The notes beneath the pieces were generated by a model that was given only the letters and a program-made list of their open reading frames with translations, was not told the origin of the DNA and did no database searches. A stretch of 50,405 nt of DNA from UHGV virus genome UHGV-0169486; one strand, 5' to 3'. Shown here piece after piece: positions 4,624 to 20,758 of this stretch. The position numbers were made by a program, and so were the translations under genes. Source of the stretch: a virus. How positions within the stretch are numbered: position 1 is the stretch's first letter; every line of letters starts with the position of its first letter.

Positions 4624-4638
4624 TTGAGGATAAGCAAA

Positions 4639-5292
4639 ATGAATAAACTAAAAGCAATTGGCGTGATTAGCCATCGCACTAACCCTGAATGTTACCCATC
4701 GTTTGAGGTAACAACATGCCGCACAGAATATAATTTTGGATCATACTATTTATTGGGTGTCCGCGCTGACACTGGCGGCACTTATTCGGTTATGGCTGCA
4801 AGCTGGAAATTTGATAAATACGCTAATTTATCGAATAAGGATGATGACGGCATGAATAAAGAAAGTGAAATCATTGATGAATTAATCGAAGATGAACGCC
4901 ATGATTGCGAAACACAACAAGAAAAAACAGAATGGAAGCCAGGAGAAAAGCCGCCGTGCGGCGTGTGGCTTGATTGTTATTATCCTGATGGCTATTACAT
5001 TGGGATTGTAATGTTTAAGTTTATCGGTGATAAATACGGGGTATACACAGAAAAAGGCAGTATACAGAAAGAAAATGCTATTGAATGGGGTTTTTATAAT
5101 TATTATTTATACGTTGATCCGAAAGAAAAAGCACTGGCGCAAATTGCGTTTGCTCTGGCTACGAAGGTTATTGGTGAGGATGCGGCAGGAGAAATAAATT
5201 TCAATCGTGATAATGATTATTCGCGTGATTATCGCAATATGGCGCAAGCTATTATTGACGGATGTATCGGACACGTTGAATACACGGAATAA
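4639..5292 (+). CDS. hypothetical protein, AT-rich accessory gene
   Basis: ORF track (4624..5292); ATG 4639 with GAGGA RBS; AT-rich codon usage by eye; Cys-containing, no recognised domain. Confidence 0.55.
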   Translation: MNKLKAIGVISHRTNPECYPSFEVTTCRTEYNFGSYYLLGVRADTGGTYSVMAASWKFDKYANLSNKDDDGMNKESEIIDELIEDERHDCETQQEKTEWKPGEKPPCGVWLDCYYPDGYYIGIVMFKFIGDKYGVYTEKGSIQKENAIEWGFYNYYLYVDPKEKALAQIAFALATKVIGEDAAGEINFNRDNDYSRDYRNMAQAIIDGCIGHVEYTE

Positions 5293-5584: not shown

Positions 5585-5851
5585 TCAAGCCCATGCGCGG
5601 ACGCCTGGATCTAGAACGATGAATTTTTCCAGCGGCGACAAATCAACATCGTCGCCAGTAATGCGCATGTTGACGTAATAGCCCTTTTTCTCAATCAGTA
5701 CAGGTGTCTCACTTTCTGGATCATCGAATACAGGCACAAAACCAATTTCATCAACAAATACGGTTGACCAGTTGGCGTCCAGCCAGCCGCTCTTAATCAC
5801 AATATCGTTGTATTGCTGTTTATCAGTAAATTGCAAGCTAACATCTTTCAT
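5585..5851 (-). CDS. hypothetical protein downstream of tail fiber (possible fiber accessory/assembly protein)
   Basis: ORF track (5585..5869); ATG 5851 with AAGGTGG RBS. Confidence 0.5.
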   Translation of the reverse strand: MKDVSLQFTDKQQYNDIVIKSGWLDANWSTVFVDEIGFVPVFDDPESETPVLIEKKGYYVNMRITGDDVDLSPLEKFIVLDPGVRAWA

Positions 5852-5861
5852 ATTCACCACC

Positions 5862-7625
5862 TTAAACAATCTCGCTCAATTGCGCATCGGTCAATGCTTT
5901 GTGCCATACCCTGAAATTTCTAATGTGTCCAAAAAGATGTCGCACCCCCGACGTGGCTTGCCCGCCAAAACGGATTGACGTAGCACTGACTGCGAATACA
6001 TTGCCGCTTGGTTTGGTTGTATATTTACCGTTGCACACGGCATCGACCGAAAGATTCTGCTGCGCGCGAACACCAGCAATAAAGTGACGGCTTTCGGGCT
6101 GAATTAACGGTTGCACCATTCCTACGTTAGCCGCAATCTCACCCGTGCTAACAAATCCAAGCGATAAGTAATTATCATTACTCCTATTACCTCCAACATC
6201 AAAAATTCGAGGCGATTGGTTTGGCGGCGTACCCCAGTTTACGTGCACCTCGACCAGTGATGTGAACGGTAGGGATGATAGATTGTTTTCTGCGAAGATA
6301 TTGACCATATCGCTGGCGCGCGTTGTCGGTAATGTGCCGGAGATGATATATGAGGACGCCCCTATTCCTAGCTCAACTTGCGGTGTGGTTAGTTCGATAT
6401 AATCCCCGGCAGCATAACTACTCACTGGCGAGATCTGGAACTGTGCGTTAACCAATGCCGTGGTGGATTGCAGCATCACCACCGCGCGATTCCATCCGGT
6501 GACCTCGTCTCTCTCAACTTCTACCGTGATACGTTTCGCAGCGCCACCAGTTTTAGACACTGACAAGTCGCTAAGTTTAATGTATGCGTCGCCGGAGAAA
6601 GTCATACTACTCTGATCCGCACCCTCTGCAAAACGCACGCGCAGACGTACATCCTTGTCGGACCGGAATCGGCATGATGCCGTTACATATTTCTCGTCAC
6701 CAGACGTATCAAGACTGTTAGCCGCAGTTACGGAAGCCATATTAAACGCCGTATTTTTTCCTACACCATCGGCCACGATCACGCACTTACCGTACAGGAA
6801 GCCGAAGGCATCCGTGTTTGCAGTTGTCGTAACTGACGGCGAGCACCCCCAGCTTGATGGAGTGTTACCGTTTATAATGTAGTTAGTTCTGGTCCCTTCA
6901 ACCAGCAGCCCTTCTCGTTCAAAACGTGGTTCGTCAATGGCTGCTTCCTTAAACACACCGGATTTGTTTATATAAGTTGCTTTTGACGCGCGTTTAAATT
7001 TAACGATCTTGTCACCTGGTACTGTTGTTTCTTCTTCACCAATAACAATCTTTTTATAGGAAGGGGAAAACCCGGTAATCATGTCGAGAGAGTCGTTAAA
7101 CGGTATCCATACGTCCGGCAGCGGCTGCAAAACATACGCGTAAGGCTGCGCTGTCTGATTGGCGTATTCGCGGGCCTCGTCTCTGTATGTCTTAGCTGAA
7201 TCGGCGGCGCTTGTCGCTGTTGTTGCAGCGTTGGTTGCAGTGGTAGCTGATTGTGACGCTAATTTTGATGCTGAAATCACATCTTTGTTGTCGCTGAAAA
7301 ATTCGACGGCGTCAGCTATTTCTGATTCCTTGCCTTGATAGTAACGCAGTGTTTCGGCGACATCCTGAGCAAGACCATCTACAGAGATCGAGTCTGAAAG
7401 CAGGATGCTAAATTTAGTGCCAGCCGGAATAGCAGGACTTGCCGAGGGGGTTACTGATAAACTTGTTGCGCTTTTTACCTCTGTAATTGAAAAAATCTGC
7501 ACCGGATCGCTAATGGCAATAAGAGTGCAACCAACCCTGATCAGAGATAATGCGGCGTTGAATTCAGTCCCTGTCCCGGTAACTGTTTTTCCGCTAACGG
7601 CTATCGTGCCTGTTGTGTAAATCAT
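5862..7625 (-). CDS. side tail fiber / receptor-binding protein
   Basis: ORF track (5862..7679); ATG 7625 with AAGGAG RBS lies downstream of a TATAAT promoter; Thr/Gly-rich N-terminus, Ala/Thr/Ser-rich central segment, C-terminal lectin-like region. Confidence 0.8.
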   Translation of the reverse strand: MIYTTGTIAVSGKTVTGTGTEFNAALSLIRVGCTLIAISDPVQIFSITEVKSATSLSVTPSASPAIPAGTKFSILLSDSISVDGLAQDVAETLRYYQGKESEIADAVEFFSDNKDVISASKLASQSATTATNAATTATSAADSAKTYRDEAREYANQTAQPYAYVLQPLPDVWIPFNDSLDMITGFSPSYKKIVIGEEETTVPGDKIVKFKRASKATYINKSGVFKEAAIDEPRFEREGLLVEGTRTNYIINGNTPSSWGCSPSVTTTANTDAFGFLYGKCVIVADGVGKNTAFNMASVTAANSLDTSGDEKYVTASCRFRSDKDVRLRVRFAEGADQSSMTFSGDAYIKLSDLSVSKTGGAAKRITVEVERDEVTGWNRAVVMLQSTTALVNAQFQISPVSSYAAGDYIELTTPQVELGIGASSYIISGTLPTTRASDMVNIFAENNLSSLPFTSLVEVHVNWGTPPNQSPRIFDVGGNRSNDNYLSLGFVSTGEIAANVGMVQPLIQPESRHFIAGVRAQQNLSVDAVCNGKYTTKPSGNVFAVSATSIRFGGQATSGVRHLFGHIRNFRVWHKALTDAQLSEIV

Positions 7626-7655
7626 CGCAATGACTCCTTTGTTATTAGTTATAAT

Positions 7656-7684
7656 ATTATACCAACTGTATTTGCTCACACAAA
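7656..7684 (-). promoter_or_regulatory. sigma70-like promoter for side tail fiber gene
   Basis: Perfect -10 TATAAT with TTTGTG 17 nt upstream, read on minus strand. Confidence 0.4.
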
Positions 7685-7732: not shown

Positions 7733-8695
7733 ATGGGGCAAGGTTTATACATAGATCTTAATGATGGCCGTCCGGCGATGGAAATTACTTCAGGATTAAG
7801 AGCGCCGTCATATTGCGGATCGTTTGGGTCAATTCCCGCCGAAACCACAAGCTATACATTCACAATGCCAACCTGCTTCCCTGGTGGTAGTGACGGTTTT
7901 TTCTTTTCATTAAAGCCTGCAACTATAAAAGAAGTTTATCCAACTACTAATGTATGCTGGATCAGCAATGTTACTAAGTTAAACTCTACTCAATGGAAGG
8001 TAGATTTTGGTTATGCAAACGGGCCCGGATGGGAAGGTGATACCGTACTGGTTAGCGGTTTGTTTTTTGAAATAGGATACCCAAGCAATAGCGGAGCTGG
8101 TTTATATATAAGAGATTCAACTGATTTCACTACGATAACAACGAATTCTAATTTATTATGTTGCACTTACGCTGGGAACATTACGTTTACTGGGACTTAT
8201 AATTTGCCGTCTGGAACTGTGGTGGCGTTTGGTAGATGGGATGATCCTAATGTTGTTGTTGAAAGATCAGGGAACACCATAAAGTGTACAAGAGTCGCGC
8301 TAGGGAGTGATTACATCACCGTTGACGCAACTGTTAACATGGATTTAGTTGTATTTAGAAGGCAGACTCCTGCTGCTGGCAATGCTGGATTGGTAATGAG
8401 GAATGCATCCGGTCAGGTTGTGTTCTCAACGGCACAAAGGCCGTTTGTTTTTGGTGGTACATTTAACATGGCTAATGGTAATCAATATATAGGCAATGCA
8501 TTCGTTCCTATAGCAAGATACGGCGCGTTAACTGAGAAAAACATAAATATGTACTATTATTACTATTACGGCGCAATAAGATCAGGTGGATACATTAGAC
8601 CAAGCAGGGGGAGTCTGATAGTTGCAAGGACAAATGGGAGGCATGTAAACGCTATCGCTAACATTAATTACCCGCTGTTACCAGCAATGTATTGA
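7733..8695 (+). CDS. hypothetical beta-rich protein with three internal repeats; AT-rich opposite-strand accessory gene
   Basis: ORF track; GGGGGAA RBS; AT-rich with AGA/AGG codons; convergent with J; followed by bidirectional terminator. Confidence 0.6.
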   Translation: MGQGLYIDLNDGRPAMEITSGLRAPSYCGSFGSIPAETTSYTFTMPTCFPGGSDGFFFSLKPATIKEVYPTTNVCWISNVTKLNSTQWKVDFGYANGPGWEGDTVLVSGLFFEIGYPSNSGAGLYIRDSTDFTTITTNSNLLCCTYAGNITFTGTYNLPSGTVVAFGRWDDPNVVVERSGNTIKCTRVALGSDYITVDATVNMDLVVFRRQTPAAGNAGLVMRNASGQVVFSTAQRPFVFGGTFNMANGNQYIGNAFVPIARYGALTEKNINMYYYYYYGAIRSGGYIRPSRGSLIVARTNGRHVNAIANINYPLLPAMY

Positions 8696-8728
8696 AAAAT
8701 AAAGCCCCTATGTAGGGGCTTTTTATTA
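8695..8728. terminator. bidirectional rho-independent terminator between J and the 7733..8695 gene
   Basis: Hairpin AAAGCCCC..GGGGCTTT flanked by A-run and T-run. Confidence 0.7.
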
Positions 8729-11700
8729 CCAGTATCCAAGTATTATCACGCCACCATTCGGCAGATTAACTCTAACACCGTTATTATTAAGAATTACGCG
8801 CCCGTCGCTCCTCGTCATGCTAAATGTTCCGCCGCCTTGAACAATAACACTACCTCTCACGGTAACGTTGTTAAATTCAGCTCTACCATCTTTATTAATC
8901 ATCCACCCTGCGGATCCTGACGCGTAGTTAGATGATTGTATCTGCTGTGCGATCTTAGCACTTGTGATTGTTGCGTCTTTGATCCATGCGTCGCGTATAT
9001 AGCAAGAGCCATTTTGAACGTAGAAAGGCGTTTGATATGTACCGTTTGCGGCAGTCATTAACACAAAGCGATCAACAAGGAAAATACACTGTGACTGAAA
9101 GTTAGTCCCGTCTCCAGTCAATCCAAGCGACATACCTGTAGCGTATTTCATGCCGTTGTTATCGGTGGCGAGCTTGATTGAATATGACGCATCAACGTTG
9201 CCTTTGAAATCGGTTAACGCTTTCGATGTTGTCTCGATCGCTGTTGTGTTCCCGTTAACGGTCACTTTCAGCTGATCAATTTTGGTTGATAATGCCTCGT
9301 CCGCCGTTGTCATGGCCTGCGACCATTCAGTGATGCTTGAGTTTACATCGTCGAAAGATGCCGATATTTGGACAAATTTTTCAGCACTTGATGCCTCGTG
9401 AGTAGCGAGCGCCGTTGATATATCTGTTATTTTTGCTGAAATATTTTCATTAATATTGGCTTCAAGTGATGCTATAGCTTCCGCGCGGGCCTGGGTTTCG
9501 TCCGCTATTGCTGTGTCGACCCTTGCTATTTCTGCTTTTGTTTTTGTCTGGCCTTTCCTGTATTTTGCCTCAATAACAGTGCTCATTTTACTTTGCGCTA
9601 TTGAGTTGTTGATAAGTGCAATCGAGGCGTTTTGCAGACTTGCTTTCGCCTGATCTATTTCGTCGCTGTTTTTATCAACCTCATTTTCAACAAGACCAAG
9701 CTCCGCACTGATACCTGATATTGCCTGAGCGCGCGCACTTGATTCGTCAGCGATAGCTTGATCCAGGCGGCTAACACTGGCATTTGTGCTATTTTCAAGC
9801 GTTGTTAAATCAGCTTTAACCTCTGTTATTGCGTCGCTTCTTGCCTGCATTTCATCTGATATTGCTTTATCGAGACGAGAAACGCTCGCATCAGTTTTGT
9901 TTTCCAGGCTGCTGATACTGGCGTTAACGTTGCTTATAGCCTCCGTTCTCGCCTGCGTTTCGGTTGCCATTGCTTTGTCTACTCGGGCTATTTCTCCTTT
10001 GATGTTTGAGTCCATCGTATTTATTTCGGCTGTGATGGTTTCCAGTGATTCCGCTGTCGCTTTTTTCTCCTCTGCGATAACGTTGTCGATGCGGTCAATC
10101 TGTGCCTTCGTTTCGTTGCGACCTTTCTTATATTGAGCGGTAAGAGTAACCCGCGTGTTAGTTTGAGCAAGCGAGTTATTGATCAGAGCAAGCGAAGCGT
10201 TTTGTAAACTTGCTTTTGTCTGTGCCAGTTCGTTGTTAACGTTTTCGTTTGATACCTCTAATGAGTCTATTCTTACCTCATGTTTGCCTATTCCATCGGC
10301 GTTTTCTTCGACTTTTTTATAAAGGTCTTCGGTGTCTTTTTTAAGTGTATCTGTGTCAGCTTTAAGGTCGTCGGTGGCTGCCTTAAGGTCGTCAGTAGCG
10401 GATTTAAGGTCGTTGGTCGCACTTTCTATAATATCAGTGCGATCGCCAAGATCTTTAATATCGCTAATCATCTCTTTGAATTGCTCTGATTCCATTACAT
10501 CCTTTGTAACGTAATCAGTGATTTCGTCAAAATCCTCTGTTGGCTTACCTGATGCCTCGACGAAATCAGACACACCAAAAGCATTACGAGTGCGAACATA
10601 AACGTAATAAGTGTGGCCCGTGTTCATGCCGCCAAAAGTCCACTGATAACCGCGCCCGGTAAACTGTGCCGACGTGGTTATTTTTGCCGGATCTGTGATC
10701 TGGTTTTCCCCTGCATAGTAGAATTCGTATGACGTATCGGTAGTAAGTGTGGTTTTGCTTATCGGGTACACGGTCGCCTGAAATACGCCGGGAACCCAAT
10801 TAACGCCGATCGGTGCTGCTGGCGCACCGATAACAAGGTCAACGATACTTTCTGCACCCTTCATGCCAGTATCATTTCTTCCGCGAACGCCTAAAGAATA
10901 CACGCCAGCTTCAATACCATAAAAATCATAACTATATTTCGTGGTTTCATAGCTTTTAACCACCGCACCATCTGCATTGTATATGCGGATCTCGAAGGTC
11001 ATGCGATGCGTAGTTGTCTGTGTTTCCCATGTAGCGCGGCATTGAACAGTCTCTGACGCAATGTTTATTACTTTCAGGTTTTCTATGTTCGGAACGCGGA
11101 AATGATTAAGCGTGTCGTTGTTGATTTCAAATATTGCGCCTTCATCGACTACCGCTTGTTTGTTCGGGTCGTGCTGCGCGGCCTCGATGGTGTACACGCT
11201 GTTGTTTTCAGTTTCGGCTACGCTGGTGATCCTGCATAAAACGGGTTTTGCTGCTTCGGTTGATACAGCAAAAACAGTCCCGTTCCGAATCCATGCCGGG
11301 GCCGCTGCCAGTGTGATTTTGTTCCCGTTAACACCAGTGATCTGATGTTTTTTAAATTTTCCATCGCTATCAAGAAGACTTATAGTGTCGCCAGCCGCAA
11401 TATATTCTGAATCGACCTTATCTACCGTTATCACTTTACCATTGTTCGCCACGATGCGACCGCCTAAGCGAGCGCCAGCGCGGTTATTGTCGAGGATCTC
11501 GATTATATCCCCTGGCGTAAAGTGAATTGCGTCACGCGCCATTTTAAACGTGAATTTTGACGGCTCGCGTTTTGCTGTTTCTATCAGCCATTTGCCCGCG
11601 CGGTGCGCTTGCCCGCGTGACGTACAGCCGAACGCCTCCATCGTGGTTTCGTTGTAACCATCGCGGGCGATTAGCTCATCATCTGCTACATACTCTTTTG

Positions 11701-12943
11701 ATTGCTCCCAGCCGTTTTCCGGGTCAGTCCAGGACACAATCACGGCGTTGTAGCATTCCGCGCGGGAGATACTCGATCGAGTGAACGCCCCGTCAACGAC
11801 GTTTGCGTTTGTAATGGTGGCGATCGGGTCTTGTGGTGCATCAATCATCACGGTGAGGCGTTGCCCGTCCCATAACGCGATGCCTCGGAACATCCCGGCG
11901 ATATTGTCCAGTAAGTCGCGGGCGCTCATCTGCTCCGTAATGTAAGCATTAAGCGTCATGCGAGGCTCAAGGCCGCCATAACCATCATCGACCAGCTGAT
12001 CGCAGTATTGAGAAAGCGTATATAATGCGCCGTCGTCAACGTCAATATAGCCAGCATGACGGGCAAGGCCGAAACGCCTGTTTTTAACCAGATAGCGGAA
12101 TATCCAGGCGGGGTTATTACTGTATGCCTGTTTGAATCCGCCAAGCCATAAACCGGAATAAGTGCGAGTTTCCGGGTTATAGTTATCAGGAACATCAACA
12201 ATCAGCCCGCGCAGGTGATAAGTGCGGGTAGGCGTGTCAGCGTACTGATCATGATCAATCACCGCGCCAGCTACAGCGGTGTGAGGATAAGACAAATTAT
12301 CGTCGATTATTTCGCTGTAACTACTCCATCTCGTATCATTCTGCAATAGATCGCTTGTGCTATCGGCTGTTACACGGCGAACGCGAATATCGAAAGGTCT
12401 TTCATTTGGAGCGTTAATGACATGAGATTCGAGATATTCGCCGCTCTGCTTACCCGGGCCGATGGTTACGCTTTTAGCCAGCGACCATGCCGAAAATGAG
12501 GATGGTTTAACTTCAATCGCCATCATTACGGATGTGTTATGTTGATTGCTTTGCTCGTCAGACTGCACAAGCGAATCCACGCCGATATTCAGGCGAACGC
12601 GGTTTACGTTAGGATCGGAAACAGTCCTGATTATTGGCGTGTCGTGAGTTACCTTAGCGTTAACAATAGTGGTTGATTCAATGCCGTTAAAACCGTTAAT
12701 CGGAGATTGATCTAACGTGCCGTTACGCCACGCCACACTAACACCATGAACGCTTGTATTTCCGTTTGCGTCAGTAACAGGCGTGTCATTAAGCATCACG
12801 CTATTTAATGGCGCTTTTGTATTGACAGGGCCATAAATCGGCCCTTCTGAAATAATATCGAGTACACGATAAAACTGTTTGTGATAAAGGTTATCGTTTA
12901 TTAATGTTGGTGTTTTTGCTTTACCACCGCCGCCGCTACTCAT
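8726..12943 (-). CDS. J: tail tip / central tail fiber protein (lambda J-like)
   Basis: N-terminal 400 aa recalled as similar to lambda J (ISEGPI, YHLRG, CTSRGQAHRAG); long coiled-coil middle; 1405 aa. Confidence 0.9.
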   Translation of the reverse strand: MSSGGGGKAKTPTLINDNLYHKQFYRVLDIISEGPIYGPVNTKAPLNSVMLNDTPVTDANGNTSVHGVSVAWRNGTLDQSPINGFNGIESTTIVNAKVTHDTPIIRTVSDPNVNRVRLNIGVDSLVQSDEQSNQHNTSVMMAIEVKPSSFSAWSLAKSVTIGPGKQSGEYLESHVINAPNERPFDIRVRRVTADSTSDLLQNDTRWSSYSEIIDDNLSYPHTAVAGAVIDHDQYADTPTRTYHLRGLIVDVPDNYNPETRTYSGLWLGGFKQAYSNNPAWIFRYLVKNRRFGLARHAGYIDVDDGALYTLSQYCDQLVDDGYGGLEPRMTLNAYITEQMSARDLLDNIAGMFRGIALWDGQRLTVMIDAPQDPIATITNANVVDGAFTRSSISRAECYNAVIVSWTDPENGWEQSKEYVADDELIARDGYNETTMEAFGCTSRGQAHRAGKWLIETAKREPSKFTFKMARDAIHFTPGDIIEILDNNRAGARLGGRIVANNGKVITVDKVDSEYIAAGDTISLLDSDGKFKKHQITGVNGNKITLAAAPAWIRNGTVFAVSTEAAKPVLCRITSVAETENNSVYTIEAAQHDPNKQAVVDEGAIFEINNDTLNHFRVPNIENLKVINIASETVQCRATWETQTTTHRMTFEIRIYNADGAVVKSYETTKYSYDFYGIEAGVYSLGVRGRNDTGMKGAESIVDLVIGAPAAPIGVNWVPGVFQATVYPISKTTLTTDTSYEFYYAGENQITDPAKITTSAQFTGRGYQWTFGGMNTGHTYYVYVRTRNAFGVSDFVEASGKPTEDFDEITDYVTKDVMESEQFKEMISDIKDLGDRTDIIESATNDLKSATDDLKAATDDLKADTDTLKKDTEDLYKKVEENADGIGKHEVRIDSLEVSNENVNNELAQTKASLQNASLALINNSLAQTNTRVTLTAQYKKGRNETKAQIDRIDNVIAEEKKATAESLETITAEINTMDSNIKGEIARVDKAMATETQARTEAISNVNASISSLENKTDASVSRLDKAISDEMQARSDAITEVKADLTTLENSTNASVSRLDQAIADESSARAQAISGISAELGLVENEVDKNSDEIDQAKASLQNASIALINNSIAQSKMSTVIEAKYRKGQTKTKAEIARVDTAIADETQARAEAIASLEANINENISAKITDISTALATHEASSAEKFVQISASFDDVNSSITEWSQAMTTADEALSTKIDQLKVTVNGNTTAIETTSKALTDFKGNVDASYSIKLATDNNGMKYATGMSLGLTGDGTNFQSQCIFLVDRFVLMTAANGTYQTPFYVQNGSCYIRDAWIKDATITSAKIAQQIQSSNYASGSAGWMINKDGRAEFNNVTVRGSVIVQGGGTFSMTRSDGRVILNNNGVRVNLPNGGVIILGYW
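9520..10240 (-). repeat. internal duplicated coiled-coil module within J gene
   Basis: Two protein segments KASLQNAS[LI]ALINNS[LI]AQ...AKY[KR]KG...TKA[QE]I about 185 aa apart, with matching nucleotide segments near 9540-9660 and 10100-10240; boundaries approximate. Confidence 0.5.
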
Positions 12944-14869: not shown

Positions 14870-14923
14870 TTTCTCACCTTGTCATTTTGTGATCTGCATC
14901 ACGCAAGATCATGCCAAAATGGA

Positions 14924-14952
14924 TTGATCCATATTTTTACAATATGTATATT
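14924..14952 (+). promoter_or_regulatory. sigma70-like promoter for plus-strand gene island A
   Basis: TTGATC - 17 nt - TATATT; overlaps conserved 14-mer TTTACAATATGTAT. Confidence 0.4.
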
Positions 14953-15216
14953 TTACTCAAACGAAGGGGAGTCAACAAAATGGCACAACTTTGAACAAGG
15001 TAGAACACTATGAGACCCGCAAAATACGCAGAGAAAGTTTTTGTTGAAGTGAAAGGCGACATGAAAAAATTTATGGATGTTCTTATCAAAGAGATGGGAA
15101 AACCGTTCCATATAGCCGAACGTCAGTATTACGCTTGCAAGGCTAATAGCTACAACAGATACGCATGACAATAAACACAAAGGTAACACCATGCAAAATA
15201 TCGTCTCGATGTATGG

Positions 15217-15543
15217 ATGGCAGGAAGTAAGGATTGGGAAGGTTACGGCTTGTATGATAGTCACGAAATGGCGATCGAGGAAGGTGAAAAACTTGTTCGA
15301 TTCTTCGGACGCGCCAGGGAATTTAAAATCATTCCAGTACAAATAGCGGATAAGGTGGAAGATATGAACCCGAAAGATATTAATGTTAACTTCAATGTTA
15401 ATTTTGCCAACTCTATGGATCAGGCTTGTCCTAGTGAAATACACGTAAAAGGTTTCCCGGCAGATGATCCGCAAGCAAAACGTGAATACGAAAAAGCGGC
15501 AAAAGATTTCTGTATCGACAACCTGGGAGCGTTCGGCAAATAA
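15217..15543 (+). CDS. hypothetical acidic protein (island A)
   Basis: ORF track; protein-like composition unlike the overlapping 224-aa antisense ORF; weak RBS. Confidence 0.4.
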   Translation: MAGSKDWEGYGLYDSHEMAIEEGEKLVRFFGRAREFKIIPVQIADKVEDMNPKDINVNFNVNFANSMDQACPSEIHVKGFPADDPQAKREYEKAAKDFCIDNLGAFGK

Positions 15544-15552
15544 GGTGGCAAT

Positions 15553-15801
15553 ATGACGCGGCGCAATCACGGTGACTATGTGTACACGTTGAAACAGGCC
15601 GCCCGCCTTATCGGTTATCATGAGCACGAATTTATTGATTTGCTGATTGAGCGCGGGGTTTTGTACCAGGTCTGTTTAACGCTGTACCCAAAAGCGAAAT
15701 ACCTACAGGAAAAGTTATTCATCATCATGACGGATGAAAACCAGGTAAACCATTCATTCGTCACTGATAAGGGATTGACATATTTGAAGGGGGCGTTATG
15801 A
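15553..15801 (+). CDS. hypothetical HTH-like small protein (island A)
   Basis: ORF track; AAGGTGG RBS; segment YTLKQAARLIGYHEHEFIDLLIERGVLY resembles a DNA-binding HTH. Confidence 0.5.
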   Translation: MTRRNHGDYVYTLKQAARLIGYHEHEFIDLLIERGVLYQVCLTLYPKAKYLQEKLFIIMTDENQVNHSFVTDKGLTYLKGAL

Positions 15802-15870
15802 GATGTGCGAACATTACGTTCTGGAGGTGATTATTATCATTATTGGATTGTTATGCATTCTGCTATCGAC

Positions 15871-15900
15871 ACTATAAACCCCGCTTCGCGCGGGGTCGTG
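15871..15900. terminator. hairpin terminator between island A and the convergent minus-strand gene
   Basis: CCCCGC-ttcgc-GCGGGG hairpin with flanking T-rich runs on both strands. Confidence 0.45.
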
Positions 15901-15901
15901 T

Positions 15902-16087
15902 TTATACCCTATCAACCAAAAATAAAACTCCCCTTCCCTCTCTCGACCTGCACCCAACATACCCGTCACCAACGTCATGAAGATACCAGATCTCGCCATT
16001 GTCATCCTTTACGGTAAGATCTTTGATTTCATAGTCGTCAAATAATGTAAAAGCGCCCGTGCGGTCAACTACACAAATAGCATACAT
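15902..16087 (-). CDS. hypothetical protein downstream of M
   Basis: ORF track (15902..16129); ATG 16087 with GGAGAAG RBS. Confidence 0.4.
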   Translation of the reverse strand: MYAICVVDRTGAFTLFDDYEIKDLTVKDDNGEIWYLHDVGDGYVGCRSREGRGVLFLVDRV

Positions 16088-16100
16088 ATTGACTTCTCCA

Positions 16101-16454
16101 TTAATTGATAACTTGTTCAAACGTTGCATTCAGAGTGCATACCGGGCCGTCTTTCGCCATGCTCCACTTTCGGCATACAAAAAGCCTTTTCACTCCGTCT
16201 GTAGATGGCGTCCAGTAAAACGCCTCGACCGCGCAACGTGCTCTTAAAAATGCGTCAACCTGGAGCGCCACGTTTCCGGCGTCACCGCATCCGGCGCTCG
16301 TACCTTTAAAGACCAGCGTATAGCTGTCAAGTAGTGGATTAATCCCTTTTGTCTGGCGCTGTTCATAGCCATCGCCCAGCTTGATAACGGACACGTTAGG
16401 CTCACTGTTTACGCTGTAGCTTCTCTGTGGTGTCCATCTGAACACTTCCGGCAT
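16101..16454 (-). CDS. M: minor tail protein M
   Basis: Recalled similarity to lambda M (FRW..., GDGY.QR, FEQV.N C-terminus); GGAGG RBS. Confidence 0.8.
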   Translation of the reverse strand: MPEVFRWTPQRSYSVNSEPNVSVIKLGDGYEQRQTKGINPLLDSYTLVFKGTSAGCGDAGNVALQVDAFLRARCAVEAFYWTPSTDGVKRLFVCRKWSMAKDGPVCTLNATFEQVIN

Positions 16455-16624
16455 ACCCCCTCCTGTAAGTTACATTTTGTATATATCTTTACGCACTTCT
16501 ACGCGAAAAATGAGATATTCGACACAAGAATTATAGCCAATTTACAATATGTATTCACACACGAAGCAACAAGCTGTATACAGGAAGCAAGAAGAAAAGC
16601 GGTACCAGCAAGTGAGGCCCAAAA

Positions 16625-16780
16625 ATGAGTAGCTATGTAGTAGTGATGCTAAACAACGCATTCGAGCAAGTGGAAGTAGCAATTGTTAAGGGTTTCGACG
16701 ACGCATTCAAATACGGTCAATTCATGATGAACGCGAAGAATGATGAATACCGGGATTTCTTCCTGAGGGCGCTTAACTAA
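16625..16780 (+). CDS. hypothetical small protein (51 aa, island B)
   Basis: Own translation MSSYVVVMLNNAFEQVEVAIVKGFDDAFKYGQFMMNAKNDEYRDFFLRALN; GTGAGG RBS. Confidence 0.3.
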   Translation: MSSYVVVMLNNAFEQVEVAIVKGFDDAFKYGQFMMNAKNDEYRDFFLRALN

Positions 16781-16790
16781 GGACGATGGG

Positions 16791-17051
16791 GTGAGTTATG
16801 AAACTGGTAACTATCGAAAAAACCTGAAAGCACAAAAGAATGCACAGGAACGGGTAATCAAGAAAGGCAAGAAGTTGCTTAACGCCTTCCTGAAAAAAGA
16901 AGCCCGCCCCAAAAAATTACGTGATGGTTATGGCTTTAAATTCGATATCAATCCTGACTGGCGGCTGTTCAGTGAAGATTTGAATATTTGGTTAATTATC
17001 GATCACCTGGAATACAACTGTCATTGCGGAGTGAAAGGCGCTCATAAGTGA
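16791..17051 (+). CDS. hypothetical basic protein (island B)
   Basis: ORF track; GTG start with AGGA RBS; Lys-rich. Confidence 0.4.
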   Translation: MSYETGNYRKNLKAQKNAQERVIKKGKKLLNAFLKKEARPKKLRDGYGFKFDINPDWRLFSEDLNIWLIIDHLEYNCHCGVKGAHK

Positions 17052-17160
17052 GGTGGAATATGGAGGAGGAGAAATATACCTAGCGGGAGATCTGGAACAT
17101 CTGGTTAGTGATGTTCGGCAGGGGTTACGTCGCACGTAACGGAAGATTATAGGAGGAAAA

Positions 17161-17346
17161 ATGATTATTGACGAAACAGAGTTATGTTACGGAGTTAGGT
17201 TAGATCTTGATGAGGATGGTCGGCTGTGGATAACCGAACTTATGGGGACTGAAACCATAGTAATTGAAAAATCGCAGGCAACACAACTTATCGCCGGGCT
17301 GCAAAAATTTGTAGATGGCACATTTGAGAACGATCGGGAGGATTAA
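17161..17346 (+). CDS. hypothetical acidic small protein (island B)
   Basis: ORF track; strong AGGAGG RBS. Confidence 0.5.
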   Translation: MIIDETELCYGVRLDLDEDGRLWITELMGTETIVIEKSQATQLIAGLQKFVDGTFENDRED

Positions 17347-17348
17347 CG

Positions 17349-17636
17349 ATGGATTTAACCGTTATTGGTCACGCACTGGCTGCGGCGACTATACAGGTTG
17401 TTATCGGCCTGCTTACTGGTGATTATCTCACTGGCGGCCTGATTGGATGTACATTCTTTTTTGCGCGGGAACACACACAGGCTGAATATCGTTACATAGC
17501 GGAATTTTGCGGAGGGAAACGAGAAAGAATGCCGTGGTATGGTGGTTTTTTACCAAAAGCATGGAATATGGCTAGCGTTTGCGACTTCGCCGCGCCCGCA
17601 TTCCTGTGCTGTTTAATTTATATCCTTACCATGTAA
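17349..17636 (+). CDS. hypothetical membrane protein (island B)
   Basis: ORF track; GGGAGGA RBS; hydrophobic N- and C-terminal segments; followed by terminator. Confidence 0.5.
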   Translation: MDLTVIGHALAAATIQVVIGLLTGDYLTGGLIGCTFFFAREHTQAEYRYIAEFCGGKRERMPWYGGFLPKAWNMASVCDFAAPAFLCCLIYILTM

Positions 17637-17640
17637 AATA

Positions 17641-17661
17641 AAGGCCGCTTATAGCGGCCTT
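17641..17661. terminator. bidirectional rho-independent terminator between tape measure gene and island B
   Basis: Hairpin AAGGCCGCT-tat-AGCGGCCTT with flanking T-rich runs on both strands. Confidence 0.65.
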
Positions 17662-17665
17662 AGTG

Positions 17666-20014
17666 TTATTTGCGGCGCGGTTGCAACATCCCGCCAGGTC
17701 TTTGCGATTCCCTTGTTATCATTTTCATTGCTACACGTTCCATTGTCTGTTCAAGTCTGCGGCTGTCTTCGTCACTAAATCCGTTTGTGGTTTGAATGTC
17801 GATGTAAACAGGCATACTGATACCGCCGCCGCCGCCGCCAATATCACGCCCCGGGATAACCCTGCCATTCTCGCCGGGGATCATGTATTGGTTGCCGTTA
17901 GACGTCTGGAATAGCTCCGGCCTGTTATGTTCCCCGACGCGGTACATATTGCCACCAATTACGCTACCACCATTAAAGCGCCCGCCGCCGAAAATGGATG
18001 TTGCCAGCGACGTGATCGCAGTAAGCGCCGCCGAACCAGCCGCCGCCCAGCTACCGCCAGTTGATGCAGCCGTTGCCGCCGCCGCCGGGGCCGCCGCCGC
18101 CGCGATGCTTCCCTGAGCGGCAACCGCGCTTGCCGTTGTACTTGCTTGAGTTGCCTTGCTTTGTGTTTCCATCATGATCTGATCTGCTATCCAGTCGGCT
18201 GCTATATCAGAAAGTCTGTTGCCAATATTCCCTAGTATATTGCTCCCTAAGTTAGCAAAAACATCGCTCAATGATTGAGTACCGTTAAGCAGGCCGACAA
18301 GCGCATTGCTCATACCACCTTTAAGGCCATTAACGCAATCACCGATCAGGCCGTTTGTCTGGCTTTGCGCCTGCCATTGCTCCCATTTCAGATCGCGGAT
18401 CTGTTGCTCATAGGCTAACAATGCCTGTTTCTGTTGCGCTTCGGTAGCGCCCAGGTCGATAAGCTTTTGCTTACGGACGGCCCATTCATCTTGTACCTGC
18501 TTAATAGGGTCAACCTCGCCTTTAAGCTGATTCATCGGGCTTACTATTTGCGCCCATTTATCACGCAATTCATCTACCTGAATTTGGGCTAATTCTTCAT
18601 CCCGTTCCTTAACTATCCCTTTTTGCGCGGCGCGGTACTCAAGGAGGGTGATTTTACCCTGGGCGAATGCAGCATCAATGGCCTTGCCGTTCTCTAACGC
18701 TTTGCGCATGGCGGCGGTGTCTTTATTGTACTGGTCAGAAACGCTTATACCCTTGTCACCAAGCGTATCCTCTTTGCTTTTCTTGCTGCCAGTCTTCTTA
18801 CCCTTTTTAGGCTTATCAACTGGCTTGTCGAATCCGGTGATCTTGCCGTCGTTGGCTTCTGCCTGTTTCTGCATAAACTCATCATAAGCGGCAGTCGCGT
18901 TTTTAATGTCGTTTGCAAAAGTCATGACTTTACCGACTGTAGGGCCGAATTTCTTCTCATTGTTGCTATTTAGTTCTTCCTTGCGCTTATCTACAACCTC
19001 CTTCATCCATTTGTAGGCGTCCATAAGTGCCTTGATTGGCGTCACCATTGCGATGATCTTCTCTGCCACCTCGCCAGCCTTCACAGCCACATCATCAAAC
19101 ATGTCGATGAATTCGCCACCAGCCGTTTTGAGTGTATCGAAGCAGGTTTTAGCGAATTTAGCGCCCTCACCTAACCCCTTAACGCCTTTTGTGATTAAGT
19201 CGATAGCTGAGACTACGCCATCTGATACGCCGAAAAGATCATCAAGCTGTTCAACAAGCCCCATGATTTCGACTTTAAGCTCATTGATAGCCATGCCGGA
19301 TGTGCGCGGCAACTGAGCAAACTGCTCGTTTGTTTCCTGCGTAGCCGCCTGGATTGCGTTAACCATCCTTTCTGCCGTGATCTTGCCGTCCAGCATTTCG
19401 GCGCGGAACTTGCCCATAGATAACCCCATCTGACGGGCCATTGTCTGTACGATGGTCGGGGTGTTTTCAAGTAGGCTGTTAAATTCTTCAGCACGCAGCA
19501 CGCCGCCGTCTATAGACTGGCGGAACTGGCGCATAGAGTTAGACATCTGTTCCGCTGATGCGCCGCCTAACGCCCCCATTTTCTGAATAGTGCCAACCAG
19601 GTTAAGTAATTGCCCTTCCGTAGCTGACGTGTTCTTCAGTGAGATGGCAAGACCTTGCCATAACTCGCCAGTATCCTTCAGGCTTTGCCCTGTTTCCCTG
19701 GATATTGCTTTCAGGCCGTCGAAAACCCGTCCGGCGGACTCCGCATCGCCCGTAAGCATTTTGATTTTTACGCGAAGCATTTTGGCCTGCTCTGCCATTT
19801 CCATAAACTGTCTAACGGCCTCGGCAGCAATTAGCAGATAGATAACCTTGGTCAGTGCTTTGATTGATGTTTTCAGTGTGTTTACCTGGCGATCTGCCTG
19901 TTTAGCACCGCGCTCTATACGGTCAAAGGCCTGGTCTGCCTGTCGTTGTGCTACAAGAAGTTGTCCTGTTTTTGCGTCAACTTCGTAATAAATTGTGCCT
20001 ACACTGGTAGCCAT
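17666..20014 (-). CDS. tail tape measure protein
   Basis: 782 aa, helical/coiled-coil composition, Ala/Gly-rich C-terminal region; located between chaperone and M; GAGG RBS. Confidence 0.9.
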   Translation of the reverse strand: MATSVGTIYYEVDAKTGQLLVAQRQADQAFDRIERGAKQADRQVNTLKTSIKALTKVIYLLIAAEAVRQFMEMAEQAKMLRVKIKMLTGDAESAGRVFDGLKAISRETGQSLKDTGELWQGLAISLKNTSATEGQLLNLVGTIQKMGALGGASAEQMSNSMRQFRQSIDGGVLRAEEFNSLLENTPTIVQTMARQMGLSMGKFRAEMLDGKITAERMVNAIQAATQETNEQFAQLPRTSGMAINELKVEIMGLVEQLDDLFGVSDGVVSAIDLITKGVKGLGEGAKFAKTCFDTLKTAGGEFIDMFDDVAVKAGEVAEKIIAMVTPIKALMDAYKWMKEVVDKRKEELNSNNEKKFGPTVGKVMTFANDIKNATAAYDEFMQKQAEANDGKITGFDKPVDKPKKGKKTGSKKSKEDTLGDKGISVSDQYNKDTAAMRKALENGKAIDAAFAQGKITLLEYRAAQKGIVKERDEELAQIQVDELRDKWAQIVSPMNQLKGEVDPIKQVQDEWAVRKQKLIDLGATEAQQKQALLAYEQQIRDLKWEQWQAQSQTNGLIGDCVNGLKGGMSNALVGLLNGTQSLSDVFANLGSNILGNIGNRLSDIAADWIADQIMMETQSKATQASTTASAVAAQGSIAAAAAPAAAATAASTGGSWAAAGSAALTAITSLATSIFGGGRFNGGSVIGGNMYRVGEHNRPELFQTSNGNQYMIPGENGRVIPGRDIGGGGGGISMPVYIDIQTTNGFSDEDSRRLEQTMERVAMKMITRESQRPGGMLQPRRK

Positions 20015-20315: not shown

Positions 20316-20729
20316 ATGAAACGGTTAGCAAAAATGGTACTTGCTGTGATTGCTGCACTGGCATTTAACGCGAACGCTAACGAGGCCATAAACATTAACT
20401 GTGAAGAAGTGGCAAACCATGTAGCCGCATATCACGACATGATCAAAAAAGAACCAGCCGCACCCAAAATTCTTTTTAAGGTAATTGATAAAATTTTTGA
20501 AGGTAAACCAGTTTATGCTCGTTGGTTTAATTATGGCCTTGTAATCGAGGCTGCTGCAAGCGTAGGCTTTGAAAACAACAGCGAAATAAAAAACAGGATA
20601 GCTAACGAGTGTAAAGCAAATAAAATTGCTTTCGCTGAAAGAATTTTTAATAAAGGCGGCGCTGGCGCAAAAAATCACGCAATTGTCAATTTAGGTAACG
20701 GTTTTATTGATATTGTTAGAATCAAATAA
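20316..20729 (+). CDS. secreted/periplasmic hypothetical protein with signal peptide (opposite-strand accessory gene)
   Basis: N-terminal signal peptide MKRLAKMVLAVIAALAFNANA; GGGGG RBS; AT-rich; own terminator. Confidence 0.6.
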   Translation: MKRLAKMVLAVIAALAFNANANEAININCEEVANHVAAYHDMIKKEPAAPKILFKVIDKIFEGKPVYARWFNYGLVIEAAASVGFENNSEIKNRIANECKANKIAFAERIFNKGGAGAKNHAIVNLGNGFIDIVRIK

Positions 20730-20736
20730 GACAAAC

Positions 20737-20758
20737 GCCCGGATCTACCGGGCTTTTT
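20737..20758 (+). terminator. rho-independent terminator after secreted-protein gene
   Basis: GCCCGG-atcta-CCGGGC followed by TTTTT. Confidence 0.6.

Follow-up and report, generated by a model that had tools for sequence, protein, structure and literature searches.

Island B lies at positions 16,455 to 17,665 of the 50,405-nucleotide virus genome UHGV-0169486, the whole of which we call the window. It fills the interval between tail gene M and the tape-measure gene (H), and its genes face against the late operon that surrounds them. An earlier note on this DNA had described an opposite-strand insert with four plus-strand open reading frames (ORFs) of 51, 86, 61 and 95 amino acids, strong ribosome-binding sites, a strongly acidic third product, a membrane protein as the fourth, and a bidirectional terminator abutting the tape-measure stop codon. 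All four ORFs are present at the stated sizes (Table 1), with AGGAGG at 17151-17156 upstream of ORF3 and GGGAGGA at 17336-17342 upstream of ORF4, and the acidic character of ORF3 and the hydrophobic character of ORF4 were confirmed. Two details of the gene list required revision: ORF2 is displaced at its N-terminus, and a fifth gene, designated c2, had been overlooked. As developed below, we consider it probable, at roughly 60%, that island B represents, in this genome, a conserved slot for accessory genes, or moron array, of the mEpimmI group of phages, situated between M and H and directed against the late operon.

Table 1. Features of island B and its flanks in the window (pI, isoelectric point; aa, amino acids; nt, nucleotides).
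Feature	Position	Strand	Remarks
Tail gene M (minor tail protein)	16101-16454	-	Pfam Phage_min_tail 2e-28
Leader, conserved non-coding, 170 nt	16455-16624	+	About as conserved as the coding parts in 26 relatives
Ribosome-binding site of gene M, inside the slot leader	16457-16465	-	
Sigma-70-like site TCGACA-18-TACAAT	16519-16548	+	10/12 consensus positions; lineage-specific
Candidate promoter TTCACA (16554-16559)-17 nt-TATACA (16577-16582)	16554-16582	+	Conserved in relatives scored
ORF1, 51 aa, mildly acidic, pI 4.66	16625-16780	+	phrog_29810 5e-36
ORF2, 86 aa, GTG start, basic, pI 9.73	16791-17051	+	RelE/ParE fold, 'ParE family toxin-like'; PHROG match
c2 pseudogene (conserved 30-aa peptide gene)	17060-17152	+	In-frame TAG at 17081-17083
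ORF3, 61 aa, pI 4.05, 15 acidic residues, variable cargo	17161-17346	+	phrog_13627 1.5e-9
ORF4, 95-aa hydrophobic membrane protein, variable cargo	17349-17636	+	phrog_1443 2.6e-36
GC-rich terminator-like hairpin	17641-17661	both	Common to the convergent ORF4 and tape-measure genes
Tape-measure gene	17666-20014	-	TMP_3 1.5e-49; phrog_1538 5e-149

The window represents a temperate E. coli phage of the mEpimmI group, and its structural genes are 83-88% similar to those of MagusPhagus, mEp021, mEp010, mEp013, mEp044, mEp515 and mEp554. Members of this group are temperate, non-lambdoid in sequence, and use both N-like and Q-like antitermination, with late genes that depend on Q (PMC11893012). We compared the M-to-tape-measure interval in 26 non-redundant relatives drawn from phage records, E. 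coli prophages and IMG/VR contigs. Small plus-strand genes occupied the interval in all 26, over lengths that ranged from 685 to 1,775 bp. The head of the slot is nearly constant, with ORF2 in 26/26 relatives and ORF1 in 24/26, and the tail that follows ORF2 is a mosaic: c2 was present in 17 relatives, the ORF3 family in 15, c4 (a gene of 56-66 amino acids) in 14 and the ORF4 family in 7. Other cargo included a 49-amino-acid gene and, in mEp515 (L003), a gene for an HNH endonuclease (4630-5136) that immediately follows the ORF2 homologue, suggesting that the slot also takes in mobile or homing genes. In strain 2017C-4173W12, no gene follows ORF2. By megablast against 5,426 complete E. coli genomes, the left half of island B was found in 31, in each case in the chromosome; only 4 had the island in full.

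All six slot gene families are under purifying selection across the relatives, with ratios of nonsynonymous to synonymous polymorphism (pN/pS) of 0.11-0.23. Since each ORF of island B also has a PHROG match, these are real genes and not chance frames. The earlier proposal had been made conditional on conservation of the ORFs in relatives carrying the insert, and that conservation is evident for ORF1 and ORF2; ORF3 and ORF4 recur in part of the relatives, and the sequences of all the families are constrained. The slots of the relatives likewise bear out the more general claim of an opposite-strand accessory-gene insert that has its own terminator and sits at a conserved position.

The predicted terminator consists of a 9-bp stem with 6 G-C pairs, placed 4 nt past the ORF4 stop codon and 4 nt before the tape-measure stop codon (17666-17668). 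Either strand of it resembles a terminator by score, the minus strand having the better U-tract, and its folding energies of -15 to -17 kcal/mol (z scores of -3.0 and -3.7) agree with the bidirectional terminator that had been proposed. A GC hairpin closes the slot just before the tape-measure stop codon in 26/26 relatives, although these hairpins fall into at least two unrelated sequence types; ARNold terminators are annotated at the slot end in mEp010 and mEp515. The loop is inverted between close relatives (GCTTATAGC vs GCTATAAGC). Two properties by which morons are recognized are seen at this locus. A factor-independent terminator of its own lies downstream of the array, in the form of the predicted hairpin, and sporadic presence at the same position is seen for the cargo genes, but not for ORF1 or ORF2.

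Morons of lambdoid phages, such as HK97 gp15 in the tail-gene region, are recounted in PMC11364771, which cites Cumby et al. 2012, and are the subject of a review (PMC3594210). Like them, island B carries small accessory genes between tail genes, has its own terminator and differs among syntenic relatives. It also resembles the gp15 locus in placing a small inner-membrane protein next to the tape-measure gene, a likeness of position only. Unlike gp15, island B belongs to an array of up to seven small genes, the first two of which are nearly universal in the group. Taken as a moron array, the locus is unexceptional both in type and in the sort of site it occupies.

The slot separates the tape-measure gene from genes M-L-K-I-J, all of them encoded on the minus strand, which is the layout of a noncontiguous operon. 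We infer that M and H are carried on one transcript. Given these orientations, late transcription must pass through the hairpin and then 1.2 kb of slot in antisense, a passage that fits the Q-like antitermination reported for the mEpimmI group (PMC11893012). The arrangement suggests a simple scheme. The hairpin would stop slot transcription from entering the tape-measure gene; in the lytic cycle, an antiterminated late transcript would read through it and traverse the slot in the antisense direction. Late read-through would then both supply M-L-K-I-J and damp expression of the slot genes. Antisense defence genes that interrupt late or lysogeny operons and are subject to reciprocal control have been described as Tai/Ati of phi80 (PMC11364771) and Tha/Ith of 80alpha (PMC11087260), and in these two phages the noncontiguous layout has been found experimentally to couple prophage defence genes to the phage life cycle (PMC11364771, PMC11087260). 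The genes of island B are similarly nested in opposite orientation within a phage operon, and mutually exclusive transcription would be expected of them. In contrast to Tai/Ati and Tha/Ith, island B shares no homology with either system, and no counter-defence partner was identified for it.

ORF2, the one slot gene present in every relative, carries a lesion in the window. Relatives begin the protein at an ATG (MKLVAID...) and make 84 residues; the equivalent ATG in the window is at 16798. A run of six adenines at 16817-16822 takes the place of the seven found in the closest relatives, and the ATG frame stops after 9 codons. As a result of this 1-nt deletion, the conserved body can be reached only from the upstream GTG. 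AAGGA is found 7 nt upstream of that GTG, the 86-residue product keeps the whole conserved body, and this variant is on record from 5 contigs. The shortened run may be a real change or a recurrent homopolymer sequencing error.

An acidic/basic pair had been proposed for tests of toxin-antitoxin behaviour, and the fold of the basic ORF2 is that of a toxin. ORF2 matches Pfam PF24732 (ParE_like) at 40.8 bits (gathering cut-off 24.4; E 2.2e-10) over profile positions 2-66 of 67, precomputed matches to the same entry exist for ORF2 homologues, and the NCBI pipeline names the product 'ParE family toxin-like protein'. An AlphaFold model based on 16 family members (predicted local distance difference test score, pLDDT, 80.8) consists of a strand, a long helix, three strands and a helix, the beta-alpha-beta3-alpha topology of YafQ, RelE, HigB, YoeB and ParE. 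When this model was searched against the Protein Data Bank (PDB) with Foldseek, the top 16 matches were all toxins of the RelE/ParE superfamily, as were most of the top 50; the scores were modest, the best match being S. aureus YoeB (probability 0.97, E 0.056). Residues N54, D56, W57, R58, H72 and the C-terminal H85-K86 are invariant in the family, and the first of these form an N..DWR motif. No significant sequence or profile match to solved structures in the PDB was obtained, and hhalign alignments of the family with YoeB and YafQ, for which approximate sequences were used, were not significant. A word-indexed protein search gave close relatives only, and distant relatives were not found in a set of bacteria with one genome per species. 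On the strength of the model and the Pfam match, assignment to the RelE/ParE fold is reasonably secure, and the modelled structure resembles the RNase members slightly more than ParE.

The gap between ORF2 and ORF3 in the window is the c2 gene, in which a TGG>TAG change at codon 8 creates a nonsense codon that is common to the window and its closest relative, L013. In the 17 relatives noted above c2 is intact, with a pN/pS of 0.11. Alleles of ORF3 in the 15 relatives that carry the family are 46-92% identical, and outside the group a single match was found, in Citrobacter phage K1M. ORF3 has no match in the PDB or Pfam; a role in anti-defence or as a DNA mimic is speculation. The earlier note had pointed to the juxtaposition of a small acidic protein and a small membrane protein as an immunity or exclusion module. 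We rejected ORF3 and ORF4 as a two-gene module of this kind since each is widely found without the other: at least 9 relatives have an ORF3-family gene and lack ORF4, and 62 phage records and 54 species of bacteria have an ORF4-family gene and lack ORF3. The pairing therefore falls away, and what stands is an exclusion-type role for ORF4, which its fibre-adjacent homologues make plausible.

ORF4 is modelled by AlphaFold2 as three helices (pLDDT 92.8). Its hydrophobic segments span residues 4-38 and 74-95, and because all six lysine and arginine residues fall in the intervening loop (39-73), this loop is probably cytoplasmic. The conserved polar loop reads GREHxQAEYRWI...MPW.GF, and the family as a whole is marked by H8, G29, R40-E41-x-x-Q44-A45-E46, W72, D79 and P83. 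A full HMMER scan recovered 435 clusters at 50% identity, all of them small stand-alone proteins. Its members are spread over 479 viral contigs and 54 species of Gamma-, Beta-, Alpha- and Deltaproteobacteria. Neither Pfam nor the PDB has an entry related to the family, and a search of the model against a viral-structure library returned nothing informative. Within the slot, two of the seven copies found among the relatives are broken. A holin is unlikely: ORF4 has no charged C-terminal tail, there are no lysis genes nearby, and matches to Phage_holin among 41 family members were at chance level.

Receptor-binding genes recur beside ORF4 homologues. One homologue sits directly after a P2-like tail-fibre gene whose product has a Peptidase_S74 domain, another abuts a P22-like tailspike at the prophage end, and a third comes after a Uetakevirus tail-fibre gene. 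In phage 21 and PhiR40_1, the two lambdoid phages inspected, the order is side tail fibre, a 92-amino-acid gene and then the ORF4 homologue, and in other lambdoid records fibre and ORF4-like matches are 0.3-1.4 kb apart. Among 31 upstream neighbours of ORF4-like genes in other species, the commonest families were tail and tail-fibre PHROGs; the rest were host genes, as expected from a position at the prophage end, where many ORF4-like genes are the last gene. In temperate phages of lambdoid, P2-like, P22-like and epsilon15-like type, the family goes with receptor-binding genes. The window has its own side tail fibre gene (5862-7679, minus strand; phrog_1419/5939), which has a ConA-like C-terminus and is 48% identical to Stf of phage 21; together with a 94-amino-acid gene (5585-5869, minus strand), it forms the same two-gene unit as Stf and the 92-amino-acid gene of phage 21 and other lambdoids. 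ORF4 lies about 10 kb from this fibre gene, and the adjacency to a receptor-binding gene that is seen for homologues elsewhere does not hold here. The fibre type occurs in 205 phage records and ORF4-like genes in 62. Many carriers of the fibre type are, we take it, virulent siphoviruses, and no phage recognized as virulent in the 60 fibre records listed recurs in the 60 ORF4 records listed.

Because ORF4-like genes sit behind fibre genes in temperate phages and are absent from the listed virulent carriers of the fibre, we favour a role in the prophage state. ORF4 is most likely tied to receptor or entry functions, in superinfection exclusion or surface conversion, as far as its genomic associations indicate. 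Genes for receptor-linked exclusion or conversion are found beside receptor-binding genes in several phages; examples are Cor, Llp of T5, gtrABC of P22 and the conversion genes of epsilon15. Like these, genes of the ORF4 family stand directly behind fibre or tailspike genes and are often the last gene of the prophage, and among the listed carriers of one fibre type the family is limited to temperate phages. ORF4 differs from them in that it is no lipoprotein, lacks any glycosyltransferase or acetyltransferase domain, and in the window is not beside the fibre. We also considered whether the slot houses the Lpp exclusion lipoproteins of mEpimmI phages, which are gp81 and gp116 (PMC11893012). By gene number both fall outside it, gp116 just past J (mEp010_115), and no lipobox protein is encoded in the slot.

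The leader contains a direct repeat with 10-bp spacing, TACGCA at 16490-16495 and TACGCG at 16500-16505, which in nearly all relatives reads TACGCG-N4-TACGCG and is a possible operator. Of the two promoter candidates in Table 1, TCGACA-18-TACAAT is the better sigma-70-like site, scoring 10.9 bits, or about the 95th percentile of shuffles; in most relatives the -10 element is TACAAA and the -35 hexamer is different. The hexamers and spacing of TTCACA-17-TATACA, on the other hand, are kept in all relatives scored, including L025, whose spacer has diverged. The -10 hexamer of TCGACA-18-TACAAT falls within a 14-mer (16541-16554) that had been noticed as shared with island A, an upstream insert at 14870-15900. 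The exact 14-mer, TTTACAATATGTAT, does occur in the window only at 14936 in island A and at 16541 in island B, and allowing up to 2 mismatches gave 4 matches where 0.71 would be expected. The island A copy is unchanged in 20/24 relatives and one base off in the other 4/24; at the island B position most relatives carry TTTACAAAATGGCT, and only this window has the exact 14-mer. A sequence near-invariant in one island and window-specific in the other is not a conserved common element, and we discarded it as a regulatory element of both. The island A copy sits in a promoter-like TTGATC-17-TATATT (14924-14952). No Rfam families or tRNAs were detected anywhere in the window.

Three other accounts of island B were weighed against the moron-array reading. 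The toxin fold of ORF2 raises the question of an antitoxin. The pairing of acidic and basic proteins that had been suggested fails for ORF3, which is absent from 11/26 relatives carrying ORF2 and is thereby ruled out as its antitoxin. ORF1 is a stronger candidate: ORF1 and ORF2 might be a classical type II RelE/ParE toxin-antitoxin module, with ORF1 as the labile antitoxin and ORF3 and ORF4 as unrelated passengers, that would stabilize the prophage or cause abortive infection. ORF2 has the fold and the ParE_like match expected of the toxin, ORF1 is small and acidic and precedes it by 10-20 nt, as antitoxin genes usually do, 24/26 relatives retain the pair, and the direct repeat in the leader could be the operator. 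In strain PAR, moreover, ORF2 is broken in two pieces and ORF1 is kept, the direction of decay expected for toxin-antitoxin loci. The two genes are nevertheless not strictly co-inherited, as ORF1 is cleanly deleted in L025 and L027, whose intact ORF2 is served by a ribosome-binding site of its own. They do not diverge together either, ORF1 being 84-90% identical where ORF2 is only 56-60% identical, and P0050, a 51%-identical ORF2 homologue on an unrelated phage-like contig (L041), is one of a row of small genes on a single strand and has no homologue of ORF1 in its vicinity. ORF1, whose family has a pN/pS of 0.12, has no match in Pfam, NCBIfam, PADLOC or the PDB, either as a single sequence or as a profile, and hence none to an antitoxin or DNA-binding family. 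The closest known parallel, PaaR2-PaaA2-ParE2 of E. coli O157:H7 cryptic prophages (5czf/5cw7), likewise combines a prophage-borne ParE-fold toxin with a very small partner, but there is no regulator gene at ORF1-ORF2, ORF1 is unrelated to solved antitoxins and dispensable in two relatives, and ParE2 is a weaker structural match to ORF2 than are the RNase members. Each locus does retain either ORF1 or the c2 peptide, and a replaceable neutralizer is conceivable. With this caveat, we regard a classical module as unlikely. Under the moron-array reading, ORF2 would be a toxin-fold effector, nearer to the RNase members than to ParE, that operates without a classical obligate antitoxin, and ORF4 would be an inner-membrane protein of the prophage state linked to receptor or entry functions.

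The same features of ORF2 can be accommodated if the slot genes serve the lytic cycle and are expressed early or in the middle of infection. T4 RegB has a RelE/YoeB-like fold, and ORF2 could be an mRNA endonuclease of the RegB kind, remodelling the transcripts of host or phage, with ORF4 guarding new virions or the infected cell, for example by blocking re-adsorption or injection. The ORF2 fold fits ribosome-dependent RNases best, no obligate antitoxin accompanies it, the array around P0050 is of the early-region kind, and the frequent abutment of ORF4 homologues to same-strand fibre genes is consistent with late co-expression. We consider this account quite unlikely, given that ORF4-like genes are lacking from virulent phages with the same fibre type among the matches listed, that many stand at the prophage end, a position typical of conversion genes, and that an antisense location inside the late operon speaks against late expression. 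The island of this particular genome could also be mostly decaying cargo with no current function, a view suggested by the displaced N-terminus of ORF2, the nonsense codon in c2, and lesions in the closest relatives: a frameshifted ORF4 in L013, a broken ORF2 in L004, and in L014 a deletion spanning ORF3-ORF4, from ORF2 to the last 24 codons of ORF4. Here too the evidence is two-sided, as ORF1, ORF3 and ORF4 are intact in the window, the 86-residue ORF2 keeps its conserved body behind an AAGGA and recurs on 5 contigs, purifying selection extends to all families across the group, and the difference in the adenine run could be a sequencing error; this account strikes us as highly improbable. Several observations do weigh against the moron-array reading. 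With the native N-terminus of ORF2 lost, c2 dead and L013, L004 and L014 also damaged, the sub-lineage to which the window belongs may be in decay. ORF1 and ORF2, being nearly universal in the group, form a soft-core gene pair and not a classical moron, and PADLOC recognized no known defence protein among ORF1-ORF4. ORF4 homologues elsewhere lie on the same strand as the fibre gene, often abutting it, and could be late genes with a lytic-cycle role. Finally, a strong conserved sigma-70 promoter was not found in the leader among the relatives scored: TTCACA-17-TATACA has a position weight matrix score of 7.3 bits, equal to the mean best score of shuffles, and its -10 hexamer, TATACA, is without the usual final T, so that the case for this site is one of conservation.

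A bolder combination of these ideas is a long shot. The ORF4 family, which has an invariant H...REHxQAE...W...D...P motif, may constitute an undescribed, widespread class of prophage inner-membrane proteins that exclude phages or alter the cell surface to match the fibre or tailspike with which they travel. ORF2, for its part, may be a RelE-fold effector that has no antitoxin and whose activity the antisense late transcript of the phage would gate. If so, the ORF2 toxin would be switched by life-cycle transcription and not by a labile antitoxin. Aside from this proposal, the locus is an ordinary one that offers two leads. In the tail operon of a recently described and prevalent group of gut coliphages, it is a fixed antisense slot in which small genes are swapped, lost and broken. 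A toxin-fold gene kept throughout the group with no obligate antitoxin provides a simple system for studying how phages control such proteins, and the ORF4 family, which, with no literature search aimed at it, has neither a family name nor a solved relative, is an inexpensive candidate to screen for a new exclusion or surface-conversion function.

Island B is one of several antisense inserts in the tail region of the window. In island A, the third ORF (15553-15801) has a KilAC/ANT antirepressor domain, and a terminator-like hairpin lies at 15878-15896. A third insert, island C (20316-20729, plus strand), is located between the tape-measure gene and the upstream tail gene; its product of 137 amino acids has a signal-peptide-like N-terminus and no family match, a bidirectional hairpin stands beside it at 20737-20753, and in some E. 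coli relatives the position is taken by a TagO-like gene, of the kind associated with type VI secretion (T6SS). Between J (8726-12943) and the side fibre gene, a further antisense accessory gene (7733-8695, plus strand) encodes a 320-amino-acid DUF6453 membrane protein that matches phrog_1265 ('moron, auxiliary metabolic gene and host takeover'). A 75-amino-acid ORF on the late strand (15902-16129, minus strand; phrog_3249), immediately ahead of island A, shares 29 nt with the 3' end of gene M; relatives annotate a 61-amino-acid hypothetical gene at this position.

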